Part shown: in pieces, positions 1-10,509 of the stretch
Position numbering within the stretch: position 1 is the stretch's first letter
How the letters are laid out: every line of letters begins with the position of its first letter
Origin: a virus
Direction: 5' to 3' (one strand)
DNA length: 10,581 nt
Virus genome (UHGV): UHGV-0266139
Translations under genes and position numbers: made by a program
The notes under the pieces: generated by a model
Database searches by the model: none
What the model was told of the DNA's origin: nothing
The model's input: only the letters and a program-made list of their open reading frames with translations

Positions 1-49
1 AACGCGTTATAAATAAATGTATGAAAGATGTTGAGCTGGTCAACGTCTA

Positions 50-86
50 CGGGGGAGAACATCCCCCGCTAACCTTTTTCTTATTT
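50..86 (+). terminator. Weak intrinsic terminator candidate: stem CGGGGGA (50-56) / TCCCCCG (62-68), loop GAACA, T-rich tract from 75
   Basis: Perfect 7-bp inverted repeat seen directly; the T tract starts 6 nt after the stem, which is suboptimal. It lies inside a reading frame that is open from the window edge into ORF 99..200. Confidence 0.3.
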
Positions 87-98
87 GAGGATTTACCT

Positions 99-200
99 AT
101 GGTTGAATTTTTGATTTATCTGGCTGTAGGGCTAACTATCGTATATTCACTGGCACATATTGGCGTTTCTGCTGTGTGTAACGCTTTCAAGTATCATTAA
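99..200 (+). CDS. Small hydrophobic peptide, 33 aa (MVEFLIYLAVGLTIVYSLAHIGVSAVCNAFKYH), one predicted transmembrane helix
   Basis: ATG at 99 preceded by GAGGA (88-92) at 6-nt spacing; hydrophobic core. The same frame is open upstream to the window start (ATG at 21), so the true start is uncertain. Below the size of the supplied ORF track. Confidence 0.35.
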   Translation: MVEFLIYLAVGLTIVYSLAHIGVSAVCNAFKYH

Positions 201-219
201 TTAAATCGATGAATTGAAC
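200..219. repeat. 20-bp perfect direct repeat ATTAAATCGATGAATTGAAC, copy 1 (intergenic, between the two small ORFs)
   Basis: Identical 20-mer found again at 1145-1164; hand comparison. Confidence 0.6.
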
Positions 220-253
220 TATAGATGATGGTCGTTTTCAAAGAGGATTATCT

Positions 254-427
254 ATGGATCTTTTTGTCTATTTCGCTACTCTGCTGTTTTTGACTATCGT
301 CGCTGGCATTAAATTGATTTTTATATCGCTGGTGGTGTTTTTCAAATTTCTAATCGGTACGCCTTACGGCTGGGTATGTTTAATCCTGTTTATTCTTTTT
401 AGTTGCTGTAAAAAGGATACTAAATAA
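254..427 (+). CDS. Small membrane protein, 57 aa (MDLFVYFATLLFLTIVAGIKLIFISLVVFFKFLIGTPYGWVCLILFILFSCCKKDTK), two predicted transmembrane helices, charged C-terminus
   Basis: ATG at 254 preceded by AGAGGA (242-247) at 6-nt spacing; two hydrophobic stretches and KKDTK tail; followed downstream by two plus-strand terminators. Confidence 0.45.
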   Translation: MDLFVYFATLLFLTIVAGIKLIFISLVVFFKFLIGTPYGWVCLILFILFSCCKKDTK

Positions 428-585
428 TAGTGTAATCTGCCTTTTCTCCTTATGGTTATTAACAGGGGATCTTCTTTGAGGATTCCCGATTAAAAGCCAT
501 AAAACACACTCCAGTACAGTGTTTTCATAGTCAGTGATCTATACAACATAAAAACATAACAAGTATAGATTGAGTGTTAATCCTC

Positions 586-611
586 CCGCCTCGAAAGAGG
601 CGGTTATTTTT
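586..611 (+). terminator. Intrinsic terminator: stem CCGCCTC (586-592) / GAGGCGG (597-603), GAAA loop, TTATTTTT tail
   Basis: Perfect 7-bp GC-rich stem with tetraloop immediately followed by a T tract on the plus strand. Confidence 0.6.
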
Positions 612-687
612 CTGGCTTTAAAGAATAATGTAGCATTATGTTCATTATAACCTCATCTTTGTTGTGCAAACCTAACCTAAACTTACT

Positions 688-713
688 AGGGACTCTTCGG
701 AGTCCCTTTTTTT
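688..713 (+). terminator. Intrinsic terminator, possibly bidirectional: stem AGGGACTC (688-695) / GAGTCCCT (700-707), TTCG loop, T7 run to 713
   Basis: Perfect 8-bp stem with TTCG loop and seven T on the plus strand; an A run on the other side means it may also end the minus-strand gene 720..1061. Confidence 0.6.
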
Positions 714-719
714 ATTGTC

Positions 720-2343: not shown

Positions 2344-2443
2344 CAGTCGATTCCTCACATGTGGATTAATAATTTCTTAAAAAAGAGCATTTCGCTCTGA
2401 ACACTTGTATTTATAAAATGATTTTCAGAAAACCCTGTAAAAC

Positions 2444-2463
2444 CACTGTATATCCGATCAGTG
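2444..2463. promoter_or_regulatory. Operator-like inverted repeat CACTG-N10-CAGTG (CACTGTATATCCGATCAGTG)
   Basis: Palindromic arms seen directly; near-identical second copy at 2529-2548; lies in the control region upstream of the leftward operon. Confidence 0.35.
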
Positions 2464-2528
2464 GGAGCACGAATTGCTAAAGAGAAGATTAATTATTAAT
2501 CAATTCGTACAATATTCAACCGAAAAAG

Positions 2529-2548
2529 CACTGTATATCTAACCAGTG
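2529..2548. promoter_or_regulatory. Operator-like inverted repeat CACTG-N10-CAGTG (CACTGTATATCTAACCAGTG), second copy
   Basis: 17 of 20 positions identical to 2444-2463, same dyad arms, 85 bp away. Confidence 0.35.
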
Positions 2549-2700
2549 CTGTATGAATTAGCAGTGAATCAGGAGATTTTCAGAAGTGAACAATCATTTC
2601 ACACATGTATTTATAACGTGGAAATTCTTGCTTATCATCTATATAGGGACTGTTTAGAAAATTTCAACCCCCACCAGTGAGAAAAAGTATAAAATAATCC

Positions 2701-2729
2701 TTGACAGTTGTCAATACACTTGACCTAAG
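2701..2729. promoter_or_regulatory. TTGACA-N13-TTGACCTAAG motif (contains palindrome TTGACAGTTGTCAA), copy 1
   Basis: Same arrangement TTGACA-N13-TTGACCTAGA recurs at 4318-4346; -35-like hexamers but no good -10 at 17 bp, so promoter versus operator is undecided. Confidence 0.3.
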
Positions 2730-2912
2730 CGAGAAATGGCTATCAAATTTTTTGTTTGAAAATGGTAGATCAGGATTATCAACCTTTATAACCTATTATG
2801 GCACGGAGACCTTTTGACAATTCTTTTTAAATCATTAACTTACGCCACTTTTTGGTGATTTTTTGATTAAATAATATACAATAATTTTCTATCAAAATAT
2901 TTGATGGGAATT

Positions 2913-3105
2913 GCCCCTGAAATTCTGAATTTTTGCCCCCGAATAAAATCCCCAAGATTCCACTATCCAATTTTTGCCCCTGAAACCTACTATTTTTGCC
3001 CCTGAAATTCTGGGAAACAGTGATTTTGCCCCTCATTTTTGCCCCTGAAATGACAATAATTGCCCCTGAAAATCTAATTTTTGCCCCTGAAATTTGCCCC
3101 CGAAA
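2913..3105. repeat. Array of about 9 same-orientation direct repeats, consensus TTTTTGCCCC(T/C)GAAA, mostly 21-22 bp apart (iteron-like)
   Basis: GCCCC cores start at about 2913, 2935, 2976, 2998, 3028, 3041, 3062, 3083, 3096 (hand-counted); a further copy at 5446-5455 sits inside a terminator stem. Confidence 0.7.
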
Positions 3106-3246
3106 GGGATTGGTGAGAAAAACCATTTATAAAACATTAACTTAGCGAGGGCAAAAGCGGGGAATCGGGCGTGCATAGATATTATATAACACATTCGCTA
3201 CGCTCATGTGTAAAACCAAAAACAACAAATAACCAAAAAGATATTA

Positions 3247-3265
3247 GGAGGGCGTAGCCCGACTG
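3247..3265. repeat. About 20-bp direct repeat GGAGGGCGTAGCCCGACTG, copy 1
   Basis: Matches 3678-3697 (GGAGGGCTTTAGCCCGACTG) with one indel; the two copies bracket the CTAG-rich module. Confidence 0.5.
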
Positions 3266-3285
3266 CGCGAAGCGCCAACCAATTG

Positions 3286-3530
3286 CTTCTAGTAACAACT
3301 AATTTAAACTAGATGATACTAGATGGTCTTAGAAGGAATTAACTAGTTTGCTCGCTCGCTTCGCTCACTCTCAAACGTCTGCGACGCCACTGCGTGGCAT
3401 CGAGAATCACTTCTGAAAGGATTTTCTCGAAAGGGATTTAAACTAGTTACTAACTGATTCTAGAAAGATAGTAATAATCACTTTGAAGATAATAGTAGTT
3501 AACTGGTTACTAGATGATTCTAGATCACTT
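3286..3530. repeat. CTAG-rich repeat module: units at 3308-3326, 3441-3467 and 3501-3527 (AACT(A/G)GTTACTA..TGATTCTAGA) flanking a GC-rich core at about 3348-3410
   Basis: Eight CTAG tetramers within about 235 bp against a handful across the rest of the window (by eye, not exhaustively counted); units 3441-3467 and 3501-3527 match at 21 of 27 positions; the core contains GCTC direct repeats and a GCCAC/GTGGC dyad. Confidence 0.6.
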
Positions 3531-3553
3531 TAATGATCATGAAAGGTATTGGT

Positions 3554-3582
3554 ATCCCTTCGGGATTGCAACCTTCGGTTGC
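3554..3582 (+). other. Two adjacent short hairpins: ATCCC/GGGAT (3554-3566) and GCAACC/GGTTGC (3568-3582), both with TTC(G) loops
   Basis: Inverted repeats seen directly; no clean T run follows, so RNA structure or processing site rather than a canonical terminator. Confidence 0.3.
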
Positions 3583-3677
3583 TAAATTGCTTCCTGATTA
3601 TTATTTCTCCAAAAGAAAGATTCTTATATTCTAAAGATACTTCTTCGTTTTGATGATGATTTAATCAAATCTATGAA

Positions 3678-3697
3678 GGAGGGCTTTAGCCCGACTG
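3678..3697. repeat. About 20-bp direct repeat GGAGGGCTTTAGCCCGACTG, copy 2
   Basis: See 3247-3265. Confidence 0.5.
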
Positions 3698-3786
3698 AAT
3701 ACAATCACCTTCTAAAAGAGATAAATTTTTCTCGTTATAAATAATAGTGAACTTACTTGATTCACTTTCTTTTAGAGGATACCACT

Positions 3787-4514: not shown

Positions 4515-4541
4515 GATAAAAATTTCTTTATAAATAAAATT

Positions 4542-5437: not shown

Positions 5438-5445
5438 TAATTTTT

Positions 5446-5470
5446 GCCCCTGAATTTCAGGGGCTTTTTT
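5446..5470 (+). terminator. Strong intrinsic terminator: GCCCCTG (5446-5452) / CAGGGGC (5458-5464), T6 run (5465-5470); built on a copy of the GCCCCTGAA repeat
   Basis: Perfect GC-rich stem followed directly by TTTTTT, 9 nt after the Rha-like stop codon. Confidence 0.75.
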
Positions 5471-5473
5471 GTA

Positions 5474-5509
5474 TCTGTAGATGCGCTGAACTTTAAGCGC
5501 ATCTACAGA
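5474..5509. promoter_or_regulatory. Perfect 13-bp inverted repeat TCTGTAGATGCGC-N10-GCGCATCTACAGA, followed by palindrome GATGCATC (5514-5521)
   Basis: Seen directly; lies in the intergenic gap between the Rha terminator and the minus-strand cassette; candidate protein-binding site or second hairpin. Confidence 0.4.
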
Positions 5510-5587
5510 TTTGGATGCATCTATAGATCAGTCAAGATTTGGACTCAGCTTCGAGATGAGCGCAGTTTTGCGCCGATTGTTTTACAT

Positions 5588-6494: not shown

Positions 6495-6581
6495 ACACCC
6501 TCCTTAAATCTTAATACCCGTATTTATCAAAATATCAACAATTTAATAAATACCTTCATATTTCGTAATGAGGGTAATTAC

Positions 6582-8489
6582 ATGAAACTAATTTCTAATA
6601 AGGCCAAATTAAAAAAGATTCTCAGAAATGCAGCCAAATATATTACGCCACCGCCTAAACTCCTTCCATCGGAATGGTGCGAAGCGAATATGGTGCTGGT
6701 AGATGGTCCTCAAGCTGGGGATAAAGTTAAACTGCTGTCATTCCAGAAAGGCATGATTGATGCTCCTTTCCTTGAGAACAAGAAAAAGTATGTTCTGATG
6801 ACCAGTGCGCAGATCGGAAAGACTACCATCCTGAACGGCATCCTGTTTAACCAGATGGCTAACGATCCATGCAATATGATTATCGGACAATCAACCGCTA
6901 AAGAAATGTCTCAATATCTCGCTGGTAAGATCCGACCGTCTATCGAAGCATGTGATGCATTAAAAGACGTGGTTACAGACAAGAATGATCGCAATTCGGT
7001 TAATAACAATAACCAGCTACAGCTCAAAACGAATCACTTCCTGTACATGGTATCGCTTACCAGCCCATCAACCCTACGTGGTAAGACCGCAAAGGTTGGA
7101 TTACTTGACGAAATTGATGCTGCCACAGCCTCAGAAGAAGGTGATCCGGTGGCACTGGCTGCTAACCGTTTAACTACCTTTGGAGATGAAGGTCGATTAG
7201 TCGTATCCAGTACCCCGACCAGTAAGCTGGGAAGCATTAACCAGCAATGGTTATCAAGCGATATGCGTATGTTTTTTGTTCCGTGTCCTCATTGCGGGGA
7301 ACACCAGGTGATCGAGTGGGAAAACGTTCAATTTGAATGGCGTAACATCGATGGTAAGAACTTACCCGATCCTGATACCGCTCGTTATATTTGCCCCCAC
7401 TGTAAGAACGCATGGACAGAAGGGGAACGAATCAGGGCAGTAGCGCAAGGCGAGTGGAGAGCAACCCGTGAAAGTGAAGTAGCAGGATTCTGGATCAGTC
7501 GTCTGTATTCACCTTTCAGCACGATTCGCGCTTGTGTGGTTGATTTTAGTCATGCGTGGCAATCCTTTGATTTACAATCCTTTTTTAACACCGTGTTAGG
7601 CAAGGTATACGATGATCAGGACACGGCAGTAGAAGCAAATGAACTGGAACAACTCAAAACAGATGTTTCTATCGAGAATATCCCTGATGACGTGATTTTC
7701 TTGTGCTCAGGAATTGACCAGCAATTGGACCGCGCAGAATCTACCATCTTAGGTGTAGCGAAAGATAAGGTTTACATTCTGGATCACCGTAGCTTTTACG
7801 ATCATAACTGTGAACGATATGAATCCCCTGTATGGGATCGTCTGATTAACTTCAAGAAAACCAAATTCTATAACGTTAATGGTGAACGTGTGCCAATGCT
7901 CGCCAGCTTCCTTGATACATCGAACGGTCGATTCACTCAAGCCGGATACCGTATTTGCGGCAAGTGGAAGAACCTACACGCTATCAAAGGTAGTTCATCT
8001 GGTAATGCTCCAGTGATTCCGGTTAAACCTACCCGCACAGGTGGTCATGAATTGCTTATGCTGGGTGTTAACGTTGGTAAATCCGCTGTTCGTGAAATGC
8101 TGGTTAGAAACCTGAAAGATAATCCTCATATTGGCTTAGAAATATCAGAAACCGTTCCTGATGATTATCTCGATCAGCTTTTGAGTGAATCCATCAAGCG
8201 TACTACTACTGGCGTGCGTTGGGTGAAAAATCCAGGTAGTACCCGAAACGAGGCTCTCGACTGTCTGGTTTATAGCTATGCTGCTTCTCGCTACGTCCTT
8301 TCAAAAATGTCATGGGATAAACTCATTGCAATGAAAGACAGCTTAAACCGTGTTGTCGAAGAATCCGTAGAAGCTCCTAAATCGCAATCTGACGAGCAAA
8401 TAGAAGAAACTAAGCCAATCACACGACCACAACGTCAAAACATCGCCAGACGTCCAAATAGAGGCCGTAGCTGGGTAACATCGTTCTAA
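6582..8489 (+). CDS. terL: Terminase large subunit, lambda gpA type, 635 aa
   Basis: ATG with GAGGG 7 nt upstream. Walker A-like SAQIGKTT, acidic VGLLDEID, zinc-ribbon CPHCGEHQ...CPHC, and blocks [32 protein letters not shown] match lambda gpA (ACPHCGEEQ, YSPFTTW, AGIDSQLDR, RNEALDCFVYALAA) from memory; size matches (lambda 641 aa). Confidence 0.9.
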
Positions 8490-9066: not shown

Positions 9067-10509
9067 ATGTTTAATCTTTTTCGACGCAAAAAGGCGGTAG
9101 AAACTCCAGTTAAAACTAATCACCGCCAGCAACAACCAAAAATTTTCATCGACAAACAAGTAGAAAAATTCCAGAAAGATTTGTCTAAGCGTTCTTTGGG
9201 CTTGGTCGGTGATCGCATTGATGGATCGCTTCAACAAGATACTATCACAGGAACCTTCAATAAGGCTCTCAAATCGAACGGTAAGCGCCTTTATGATCAG
9301 GGTCGTACTCTGGCCTTAAACACTTCCGTAGGCAGTCGCTACACGCAATACATCACCGATATGGTGGTTGGTACTGGCCTAGATCCGAAGCCGTCAGTTG
9401 TTAAATCAAATGGAAAACTTGATAGCGCACTGAATAAGCAGATCGAGAATGCTTTCTGGAAGTGGGCGCAGAATGCTAAACGCTTCTCTCGTAACGGTCG
9501 CTTTAACTTCCGTGAACTGCTGGTAATGGCTGAACGTGAGCGCGTTATGGGTGGTGAGTGCTTCATAGTTTTAACCAAAGAAAACAATGAGTTAAATGTT
9601 TCTATCCTGTCTGCTGATAAGTGCGACTGGACGCTCAACCGTGAAGTAAGCAAAGAACGTGCTATCTATCAGGGGATAGAGTATGACGTAGAAACAATGC
9701 GCCCTGTTGCATACTGGTTTCGTAAAATCAACCTACTGACTCAGACTTACACAGGTGATAACTATCGCGTAGATGCTTCGCAAGTATGCCATTATTATCA
9801 ACCACTTGCGGCTGAATCTCTGCGTGGTGTGACTGACTTCCTGCCAGTGATCAAGGATATTGCGCATCAAGACGCATTCCGCGAAACCGCGATCATCCAG
9901 AAACGTATTGCAGCTAGCTCTATGGGCTTTATCGAACGTCCGAAAGATTCTGGTGACGATTTTGATACTGGTGAAGAGGATGAACAATATCAAGCGCCGG
10001 AAGTAGTACAGGATTTTGCACCGGGTACTATTCAGGAATTGCCGGAAGGGGCAACGATCAAGAGCATCCAGGCGACGCAAAGCGGTGATGATTTCAATTC
10101 CTTCAATGATGCGATGTTTACTAGCGTATCAATGGGCTTAGGCGTGTTTAAACAGGGCTTGACTGGTGATACTTCCCAGATCAACTACTCAGCCGCGCGT
10201 TTCGGTGAACTACTTCAACGTAACCGTGTTAAATCGCTACAAAACAAATTGATTGAAACAGTGGTATTGCCAATTTTTGAAGCATATCTACGCCATTATT
10301 CCGCGCGTGGTATTGTTCCGATTCGTATTACTGCAATCCCGCATATTATCGATAACACTACTATTATTCGTCCGCGTTTTGAGTCCGTCGATGTTATTAA
10401 AGATGTGAACGCTGATATTGCTTTAATTGATAACGGACTTAGAATCTATCCCAAAAGGATTTTATTCCAGACAATGATGCTGCAAGCAAAATGCAGCATC
10501 GCCTCGTAG
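9067..10509 (+). CDS. Portal protein, lambda gpB type, 480 aa
   Basis: ATG with AAGGGG 6 nt upstream. Blocks FWKWAQNAKRF...NFRELLVMAERERVMGGECFIV and GLGV...YSAAR parallel lambda gpB (AAWKEFAED...TFTMMIREGV...GELFV; GLGVSYEQLSRNYAQMSYSTAR) from memory; correct synteny after terminase and gpW. Confidence 0.85.
   Translation: MFNLFRRKKAVETPVKTNHRQQQPKIFIDKQVEKFQKDLSKRSLGLVGDRIDGSLQQDTITGTFNKALKSNGKRLYDQGRTLALNTSVGSRYTQYITDMVVGTGLDPKPSVVKSNGKLDSALNKQIENAFWKWAQNAKRFSRNGRFNFRELLVMAERERVMGGECFIVLTKENNELNVSILSADKCDWTLNREVSKERAIYQGIEYDVETMRPVAYWFRKINLLTQTYTGDNYRVDASQVCHYYQPLAAESLRGVTDFLPVIKDIAHQDAFRETAIIQKRIAASSMGFIERPKDSGDDFDTGEEDEQYQAPEVVQDFAPGTIQELPEGATIKSIQATQSGDDFNSFNDAMFTSVSMGLGVFKQGLTGDTSQINYSAARFGELLQRNRVKSLQNKLIETVVLPIFEAYLRHYSARGIVPIRITAIPHIIDNTTIIRPRFESVDVIKDVNADIALIDNGLRIYPKRILFQTMMLQAKCSIAS

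Follow-up and report, generated by a model that had tools for sequence, protein, structure and literature searches.

HK97 gp15 is reportedly a moron product with a role in superinfection exclusion, as Cumby et al. 2012 are said to have described, and the definition of a moron is said to come from Juhala et al. 2000. The locus which is compared with such systems here lies at the beginning (positions 1-717) of a stretch of 10,581 nucleotides (nt) of the UHGV virus genome UHGV-0266139; the whole stretch that was analysed is called the window below. It encodes two small hydrophobic peptides on the plus strand, in the open reading frames (ORFs) ORF1 and ORF2, and a preliminary description made from the letters alone had called it a moron-like unit. 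The window is the left end of a previously undescribed temperate Escherichia coli prophage of about 36 kb, and the peptide pair represents one allele of a variable cassette that has three forms and is located between conserved flanks.

HK97 gp15 is a small inner-membrane protein encoded by a prophage moron and has been described as a superinfection exclusion protein (PMC3594210). Morons are recognised by their own promoter, their own terminator, their nature as extra DNA between genes and a GC content differing from the surroundings, as well as by expression from the repressed prophage (PMC3594210). The locus in the window resembles the gp15 unit, as it is compact, carries promoter-like and terminator elements, stands among unrelated genes and is dispensable for the core plan of the phage, and its products are likewise predicted from sequence to be small inner-membrane proteins of a temperate phage of E. 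coli. In contrast to gp15, which belongs to the YebO family, the cassette proteins are orphans and no sequence relationship connects the two. Moreover, the locus comprises either two ORFs or one protein with three transmembrane (TM) segments, it varies between three alleles and not between presence and absence, its GC content equals that of its neighbours, and it is found beside a small terminase gene, not in a tail operon.

T4 Imm (83 amino acids (aa), two TM segments) and P22 SieA are further examples of small phage-encoded inner-membrane exclusion proteins; here the likeness is limited to size, membrane location (predicted for the cassette proteins) and evolutionary pattern, and no homology was found. 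Class I holins, represented by lambda S, have a similar size, three TM segments, a charged C-terminal tail and a start region folded in the mRNA, and two of the three alleles (B and C) share with them a length of about 93 aa, the three TM segments, a short basic C-terminus and a folded start region. With the type I toxin-antitoxin systems hok/sok, ldr/rdl and tisB/istR the locus has in common hydrophobic peptides of less than 60 aa, a structured mRNA and sequestered starts. Finally, small RNAs (sRNAs) derived from 3' untranslated regions (3' UTRs), of the CpxQ type, and the pairing between the 3' UTR and the 5' UTR of icaR in Staphylococcus aureus are comparable in two respects: a conserved structured region between the stop codon and an intrinsic terminator, and a single-stranded C/U-rich stretch complementary to the transcript's own Shine-Dalgarno (SD) sequence.

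Three alleles of a membrane-protein cassette

In many relatives of the window positions 1-78 and 419-717 are conserved at 88-97%, and the stretch 79-418 between them is replaced. The right flank, referred to as the 3' block, was found in 62 of 5426 complete E. coli genomes, which carry allele A, the form present in the window (30 genomes), allele B (31) or allele C (1). The products of the three forms are as follows:

Type A: two peptides of 33 and 57 aa, with one and two TM segments
Type B: a single 94-aa three-TM protein ending in FKQTK; ratio of non-synonymous to synonymous polymorphism (pN/pS) 0.26, no insertions or deletions (indels)
Type C: a single 92-aa three-TM protein ending in NKDTK

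To describe allele A, the equivalent region was taken from 40 loci and 22 distinct two-peptide haplotypes were aligned. The variable part of the unit in the window contains the following elements:

99..200, plus strand: ORF1, ATG99 to TAA200, 33 aa, one TM helix by hydropathy (MVEFLIYLAVGLTIVYSLAHIGVSAVCNAFKYH); SD sequence GAGGA at 87-91
201..253, plus strand: ORF1-ORF2 spacer, nearly invariant; an 11-bp stem, 219-229 / 247-257, includes the ORF2 AUG
254..427, plus strand: ORF2, ATG254 to TAA427, 57 aa; SD sequence GAGGA at 243-247

Both ORFs were already named in the preliminary description together with their SD sequences and their one and two TM segments, and both statements agree with the sequence and with hydropathy. 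In frame, pN/pS amounts to 0.18 for ORF1 and 0.19 for ORF2, with values of 0.38 to 10.6 in the wrong frames, and neither an indel nor a stop codon occurs in the 22 haplotypes at a synonymous divergence of about 10% (13-17% of the columns are variable in the ORFs). From the low pN/pS and the absence of indels and stops it follows that ORF1 and ORF2 are real genes under purifying selection. The comparison with related genomes, which had been suggested as a check, has thus revealed both the three-allele cassette and the constraint on its two-peptide form. The GAGGA sequences of the two ORFs are strong, as in other genes of the phage. ORF1 is predicted as a gene in several assemblies and the exact ORF2 sequence is recorded in 598 blocks of an assembly index; in RefSeq both are unannotated. 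The ORF2 peptide has two hydrophobic segments with G-T-P-Y-G between them and a basic KKDTK tail; its AlphaFold2 model is a single helix, confident for residues 1-30 only and therefore uninformative on topology.

The reading frame of ORF1 is open to the edge of the window, with an in-frame ATG at 21, and this holds for 22/22 type A haplotypes. Nevertheless, the ATG21 extension has no SD sequence, in locus L034 positions 28-69 are read in another frame, and stop codons interrupt the corresponding homologous stretch of alleles B and C. The start at ATG99, with GAGGA 7 nt upstream, is favoured on these sequence features. ORF1 as the tail of a longer upstream gene, the outcome that would have overturned the preliminary description, was also considered and rejected. 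The upstream gene is small-terminase-like (phrog_57, E 2.4e-15, the match spanning the whole protein; L041:7438-7989) and, in the haplotype of the window, ends with a TAA directly before position 1 in a frame different from that of ORF1.

The proteins of alleles B and C share homology, with 48% identity across 66 residues (E 3e-22). The pair formed by ORF1 and ORF2 is likely to be a split form of the same three-TM protein, cut in the loop after the first TM segment, which is suggested by several features of the sequences. The two peptides add up to 90 aa as compared with 92-94 aa, and their TM segments to three. When concatenated, they are collinear with allele C at 27% identity (E 0.10); at the junction ORF1 ends in ...KYH where C has ...KYE, and ORF2 starts with MDLF where C has LFLGAF. 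The N-terminus of ORF1, M-x-x-F-L-x-Y, matches the N-termini of alleles B and C, and ORF2 and allele C have in common a P-x-G turn between the last two helices and the KDTK end. In a profile comparison of alleles B/C with ORF1 or ORF2 only the termini align, at identical positions, and BLASTP of allele B against ORF1 or ORF2 gave no alignment. The last two codons of ORF2 and its stop fall within the conserved 3' block.

All three forms of the cassette are orphans confined to this E. coli prophage lineage. Word-indexed, alignment-based and exhaustive protein searches returned only E. coli members of the same lineage, and an exhaustive phmmer search with ORF2 against 1.84 billion representatives found its own cluster only. 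Nothing above threshold was obtained for any peptide form in Pfam, PHROGs, PADLOC and NCBIfam. No match was found by tblastn of the 57-aa peptide and of the neighbouring 320-aa protein against phages, and two scans that covered a single genome for each species, one using the peptide and the other the small terminase, yielded nothing.

The spacer between ORF1 and ORF2 is the most conserved part of the unit, with 2/53 columns variable (30% in the 3' block). Its hairpin reaches -18.9 kcal/mol on the plus strand and -4.4 kcal/mol on the minus strand. The predicted probability of being unpaired is 0.03 for the ORF2 AUG and 0.11-0.36 for the ORF1 AUG, the lowest values among 11 real gene starts tested in the window. 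Because both AUGs are predicted to be buried in structure, the modelling suggests that translation of ORF1 and ORF2 is held down by the mRNA, possibly with coupling of ORF2 translation to that of ORF1. A long-range interaction of 202-224 with the start region of ORF1 was predicted too and was discarded, as the sole variable position, G113A, breaks a pair.

The spacer also contains an exact 20-nt direct repeat: 200-219 equals 1145-1164, at the 3' end of the minus-strand 320-aa gene, and a single allele of that gene carries this second copy. A single divergent locus has substitutions on both sides of the 22-mer and none within it. The repeat may be a footprint of the splitting event, or may form an RNA duplex in trans. 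In E. coli HeN100 (L043:5609-9210) an ISApl1-mcr-1-pap2 colistin-resistance segment stands in place of the equivalent of window positions 200-393, which removes the spacer and most of ORF2 within the prophage. The three-allele locus with its probably split gene, the conserved spacer sequestering the ORF2 start and the small-terminase-like gene upstream had all been missed in the preliminary description.

Probable transcription signals and the 3' block

The remaining elements of the unit are the signals at which its transcription probably starts and ends, and the RNA features of the 3' block:

7..15, plus strand: promoter-like motif TTATAAATA, 84 nt upstream of the ORF1 ATG
50..68, plus strand: GC-rich hairpin of 7 bp, CGGGGGA-GAACA-TCCCCCG, about -15 kcal/mol; a T run begins 6 nt downstream
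418..426, plus strand: second promoter-like motif, TACTAAATA, at the left edge of the 3' block, overlapping the last ORF2 codons and the stop
450..502, plus strand: hairpin H1, 53 nt, long and interrupted; -25.3 kcal/mol, z-score (z) -6.0
549..585, plus strand: most conserved non-coding block, nearly invariant in 17 sequences of both alleles, ending in AAUCCUC at 579-585
586..611, plus strand: intrinsic terminator T1, stem-loop 586-603 followed by UUAUUUUU; 7-bp GC stem, tetraloop
612..687, plus strand: inter-terminator spacer, indel-rich (indels in 14/76 columns, substitutions in 12/76); no conserved ORF
688..714, plus strand: intrinsic terminator T2, 688-707 followed by U7; 8-bp stem, UUCG loop; called by the terminator scan

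The motif TTATAAATA has 6 exact copies in the window (7-15, 2049-2057, 2408-2416 on the minus strand, 2608-2616 on the minus strand, 3735-3743 and 4528-4536) as compared with 0.25 expected, and none of 200 shuffles reached 6; variants occur at 418-426 and 6544-6552. In the window and the rest of the prophage all copies but one are intergenic, the exception being the 2049 copy, which falls on the start codon of the 320-aa gene of the minus strand. The majority face a downstream gene; those at 2049 and 2416 face a terminator hairpin first. The motif precedes almost every transcription unit of the prophage, that of the large terminase gene included, and is usually followed by GTG after 3-4 nt. 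It contains TATAAATA, which we take to be the T4 late-promoter consensus. Judging from this distribution, TTATAAATA is probably the -10 element of the phage's promoters. Positions 5-32 are 87% identical to the site 2618-2589 on the minus strand, and about half of the relatives have TACTAAATA, a weaker variant, in place of TTATAAATA at 7-15. The ORF1-ORF2 unit would accordingly possess its own promoter of the TTATAAATA type.

The hairpin at 50-68 was not called by the terminator scan. In relatives A56G occurs with T62C, which is compensatory, and in allele C a different hairpin, GGGGAG-TTAGATG-CTCCCC with a T run, is located in the same place. It would serve the small-terminase-like gene as a weak terminator or else form a stem in the 5' UTR. 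In two loci (L006 and L037) an insertion sequence (IS) has entered the equivalent of this hairpin, with a 14-bp duplication of 53-66 in both; according to the gene table of L037 it encodes a 372-aa DDE transposase. The GGGGG(N7)CCCCC hairpin may be favoured as an IS target. The motif at 2416-2408 on the minus strand is followed within 10 nt by a hairpin with a T run (2398-2384), and this promoter-then-terminator layout resembles that of 7-68. Downstream of the 2049-2057 motif, at a distance of 35 nt, stands a terminator (2092-2121, a 12-bp stem with a T run) that is the strongest on the plus strand in this region. The plus-strand stretch 2049-2130 is situated within the minus-strand operon, between its 59-aa and 320-aa genes, and is a candidate for an antisense RNA of about 60-70 nt opposite the 5' UTR of the 320-aa gene.

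The two terminators had been called strong in the preliminary description, and both are present at the stated positions and fold stably. T1 (-14.6 kcal/mol, z -4.1) was called by the scan; in relatives its stem is kept and its loops are variable, with T591-A598 changed to C-G. T1 was also considered as a cos site and rejected, since loop variation and compensatory stem changes fit an RNA hairpin and not a nicking site. T2 (-14.1 kcal/mol, z -4.0), the stem of which is also kept in relatives, follows the stop codon of the convergent gene on the minus strand at a distance of 13 nt and has plus-strand polarity only, with no T run on the minus strand; some relatives have another hairpin at this site, AGGGAGTC...GGACTCCCT with a T run.

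The 3' block (419-717, about 300 nt) accompanies all three alleles and starts at ACTAAATAAT in each of them. At its start TAAATAATAGTG (12 nt) is found, which recurs exactly at the motif site 3738-3749, and TACTAAATA at 418-426 may, by its sequence, have promoter activity. The stretch 428-585 is non-coding, as the preliminary description had stated, because 19/158 of its columns have indels and the ORFs have none. For the RNA of 428-612 the folding z is -4.7 when it is read from the plus strand and -2.4 from the minus strand. In 17 sequences all 19 pairs of H1 are kept, 2 of them through changes on both sides, and for H1 and T1 together 99.7% of the cells are paired, with 3 compensatory pairs. 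Several pairs of the block are G-U and would be A-C mismatches on the minus strand. Since both the pairing and the G-U pattern are specific to the plus strand, the block is regarded as an RNA feature of the plus-strand transcript.

The sub-blocks 419-441 and 549-590 are invariant. AAUCCUC at 579-585, predicted to be single-stranded directly 5' of T1, is complementary to the GAGGAUU SD sequences of ORF1 and ORF2, and the predicted probability (P) of this pairing is 0.18-0.93 across all alleles. A fold-back of the ORF1 SD onto the 3' anti-SD was nevertheless rejected: the mean P is 0.60 when the interior is shuffled, and the SD is predicted to stay buried in an anti-SD mutant. As the pairing is no better than in shuffled interiors, it is not counted as evidence. 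Judging from conservation and predicted folding, the 3' block is the structured 3' UTR of the unit, and it may also be released as an sRNA of about 180 nt.

Possible functions of the unit

The explanation which we put forward, tentatively and with slightly less than even confidence, is that the locus is a self-contained plus-strand accessory unit, the inner-membrane products of which take part in conflict, most likely in superinfection exclusion. It would be transcribed from its own promoter of the TTATAAATA type, translation would be damped by mRNA structure, and T1 and T2 would insulate the convergent operon. The products would reside in the inner membrane and act in phage-phage or phage-host conflict, their most likely role being to block the DNA entry of incoming phages. 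Membrane exclusion is placed first because of the fast divergence between conserved flanks and the precedent of HK97 gp15. A role in conflict would explain how the proteins diverge rapidly while the flanks stay 90-97% identical; divergence beyond recognition between near-identical flanks is the signature of a conflict gene, for instance one of exclusion or defence.

Several observations weigh against this explanation. None of the 62 E. coli genomes and none of the IMG/VR relatives lacks the unit. The proteins are orphans, with no homology linking them to any function, and allele A shows weak homology to the other two alleles (E 0.10; by profile at the termini only). At 35-37% GC, the unit does not stand out from its neighbours. 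The promoter-like motif cannot separate lysogenic from lytic timing, because the large terminase gene is preceded by it too. In addition, no holin of the phage was recognised by homology near its endolysin, and because of this a role in lysis keeps some probability.

The moron-like character claimed in the preliminary description is therefore retained in part. A separate plus-strand accessory unit with a promoter-like motif and its own factor-independent terminators (T1, T2) is present; extra DNA is not found, nor is a difference in GC content. Since the unit is present in every relative, it amounts to a replaceable cassette and not to an addition, and 'moron-like replaceable cassette' is the accurate label.

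A reading that is compatible with this explanation, possible and yet on the unlikely side, regards the 3' block (about 433-611) as an independent sRNA gene of about 180 nt with TACTAAATA at 418-426 as its promoter and T1 as its terminator, acting through a single-stranded CU-rich 5' end or through AAUCCUC. The idea that 428-611 is a terminator-ended small RNA was raised in the preliminary description and has gained support from a block common to the alleles, a plus-strand fold and a promoter-like motif at its start. The block is kept beside all three unrelated or diverged cassettes and starts exactly at the motif; the TAAATAATAGTG identity with another motif site, the strand-specific fold with its compensatory and G-U pairs, the invariant sub-blocks and the U-rich terminator tail point in the same direction. 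However, TACTAAATA is a weaker variant of the motif, a conserved -35 element is impossible since it would fall in the variable cassette, the block is more variable than the ORFs, and a plain structured 3' UTR fits the same features.

In contrast to the CpxQ-type and icaR examples, the block is known from sequence only, has no Rfam family, and is no better than controls in SD pairing and in trans targets. A search of Rfam 15 with the whole window gave no match at E up to 1, and for 1-760 only chance-level matches, far below gathering scores, were seen; a tRNA search found nothing. When targets in trans were predicted among 41 start regions (39 annotated prophage genes, ORF1 and ORF2), 31/100 shuffles were at least as good. 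A 754-nt contig with allele B was considered as a transcript and dropped, because it is a metagenome contig. The stronger form of this idea, an autonomous sRNA of about 180 nt that governs the adjacent membrane-protein allele via the anti-SD and the spacer stem, is judged very unlikely.

It is improbable that the locus is the phage's holin or a holin/antiholin pair, with B and C as class I-like three-TM holins and A as a split version, which would be expressed late, on one transcript with the small terminase gene, and would set the time of lysis. The size, the three TM segments and the charged C-terminal tail fit class I holins, the unit lies on the same strand directly downstream of a packaging gene, its start codons are buried in RNA structure as in lambda S, and near the endolysin homology has identified no holin. 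Nevertheless, the endolysin (Peptidase_M15_3, phrog_894, E 1.4e-45) is encoded at the opposite end of the prophage, about 25 kb from the unit, and two small TM proteins (56 aa and 92 aa) are encoded just upstream of it in the same operon, which are the observations that turn the balance against the holin or antiholin proposed in the preliminary description. Matches to holin models were far below threshold (phrog_19617 at E 0.45 for P0018, a type C-like protein; NF035928 at 13.8 bits as compared with a cut-off of 150, for allele C). Unlike lambda S, the locus has no dual-start motif, and it is hypervariable within one lineage; three very different alleles in near-identical phages are unexpected for a core lysis gene.

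A type I toxin-antitoxin-like module, in which depolarising peptides would be encoded by an mRNA silenced by fold-back and controlled by an RNA antitoxin, is highly improbable. Both peptides are hydrophobic and shorter than 60 aa, the ORF1 and ORF2 starts are the least accessible of those tested, the spacer upstream of ORF2 is invariant, a 7-nt anti-SD beside T1 is conserved in all alleles, and IS or transposon disruptions occur in 3 loci. The 3' element complementary to the SD is reminiscent of fold-back inhibition in hok, but its pairing with the SD is no better than in shuffled controls and the anti-SD mutant keeps the SD paired. The IS insertions are found in a GGGGG(N7)CCCCC hairpin, which could be a favoured target of IS elements. 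Searches of Pfam, PADLOC and NCBIfam at E up to 1 matched no type I toxin family (Hok/Gef, Ldr, TisB, Ibs, ShoB, Fst and others). In contrast to the known systems, no conserved antisense promoter or antisense RNA gene was found, although sequence alone cannot prove that an RNA is absent: minus-strand promoter-like sites are weak, no more frequent than in shuffles and unconserved (the -10 at 558-553 becomes TGTGTT in many relatives), and the structure of the spacer is specific to the plus strand. The unit also differs in having two tandem ORFs with strong SD sequences, and its allelic partners, as three-TM proteins of 92-94 aa, are beyond the range of type I toxins. The suggestion of a type I toxin in the preliminary description thus loses most of its ground.

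The least probable reading, that allele A is a decaying pseudogene in which a three-TM gene was broken by an insertion and ORF1 and ORF2 are functionless leftovers, can appeal to the weak collinearity with allele C, which breaks exactly at the spacer, to the spacer 20-mer, which is also found in a neighbouring gene like an insertion or recombination footprint, and to the missing RefSeq annotation, but the split form is not decaying: both halves are constrained without a stop or indel, a canonical SD sequence and ATG have been acquired by ORF2, no other part of the unit is as strongly conserved as the spacer, and allele A matches B in frequency (30 and 31 genomes).

The prophage and the meaning of the locus

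The exact 57-aa peptide with its flanking DNA is present in E. coli chromosomes and in prophage contigs of about 35 kb in IMG/VR. A DNA search of the INPHARED phage collection with the window, in near and distant modes, gave no match, and the closest terminase in that collection is 42.7% identical. In E. coli PEC41 the gene ycdX is split by a prophage of about 36 kb, and in other strains hicB is split; a literature search for a prophage in ycdX yielded nothing relevant. Loci showing the insertion site, in ycdX in some strains and in hicB in others, are L041/L042 (NZ_CM168023) and L043 (NZ_CP044443). The far end of the prophage in PEC41 encodes a large serine recombinase, tail genes and the M15 endolysin, and the window itself encodes a GpA-type large terminase (6582-8489), a portal protein (9067-10509), a head-tail joining protein and a Rha/antirepressor-like gene.

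As the upstream gene is phrog_57-like, the unit stands between a small-terminase-like gene and a convergent operon on the minus strand (720-2358), the opposite orientation of which had been noted in the preliminary description. The GC content is 33-38% in the adjacent early region and 42-49% in the structural genes.

Some further observations concern the rest of the window. The small-terminase-like gene and the GpA-type large terminase gene are 6.5 kb apart, with accessory and regulatory genes on both strands between them, an unusual layout for a lambda-type packaging pair. TTTTTGCCCCTGAAAT is repeated five times at 2907-3099, with a spacing of 21 nt between some of the copies, and one distant copy is found at 5440-5462; the array is located in a gene-poor stretch of about 1.4 kb (2400-3780) and, with its iteron-like layout, may serve as an origin or as a set of binding sites for a regulator. 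Just past the Rha-like gene, at 5473-5510, a near-perfect 18-nt inverted repeat with a 2-nt spacer was seen (ATCTGTAGATGCGCTGAA / TTAAGCGCATCTACAGAT).

The practical yield of these findings is modest unless a phenotype is found. For the biology of E. coli they describe a prophage lineage that occurs in about 1% of the complete genomes, and they add two unannotated small membrane proteins and an orphan family with three alleles to the accessory gene pool of the species. The apparently functional split into a one-TM and a two-TM gene, between which an invariant spacer is predicted to hide the second start, makes an attractive example of phage gene fission, and the three alleles offer a ready-made natural experiment for specificity. 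If an sRNA did govern the adjacent allele, the locus would be a same-strand, toxin/antidote-like module composed of a split three-TM effector and an RNA governor, and it would represent a new kind of phage conflict system.

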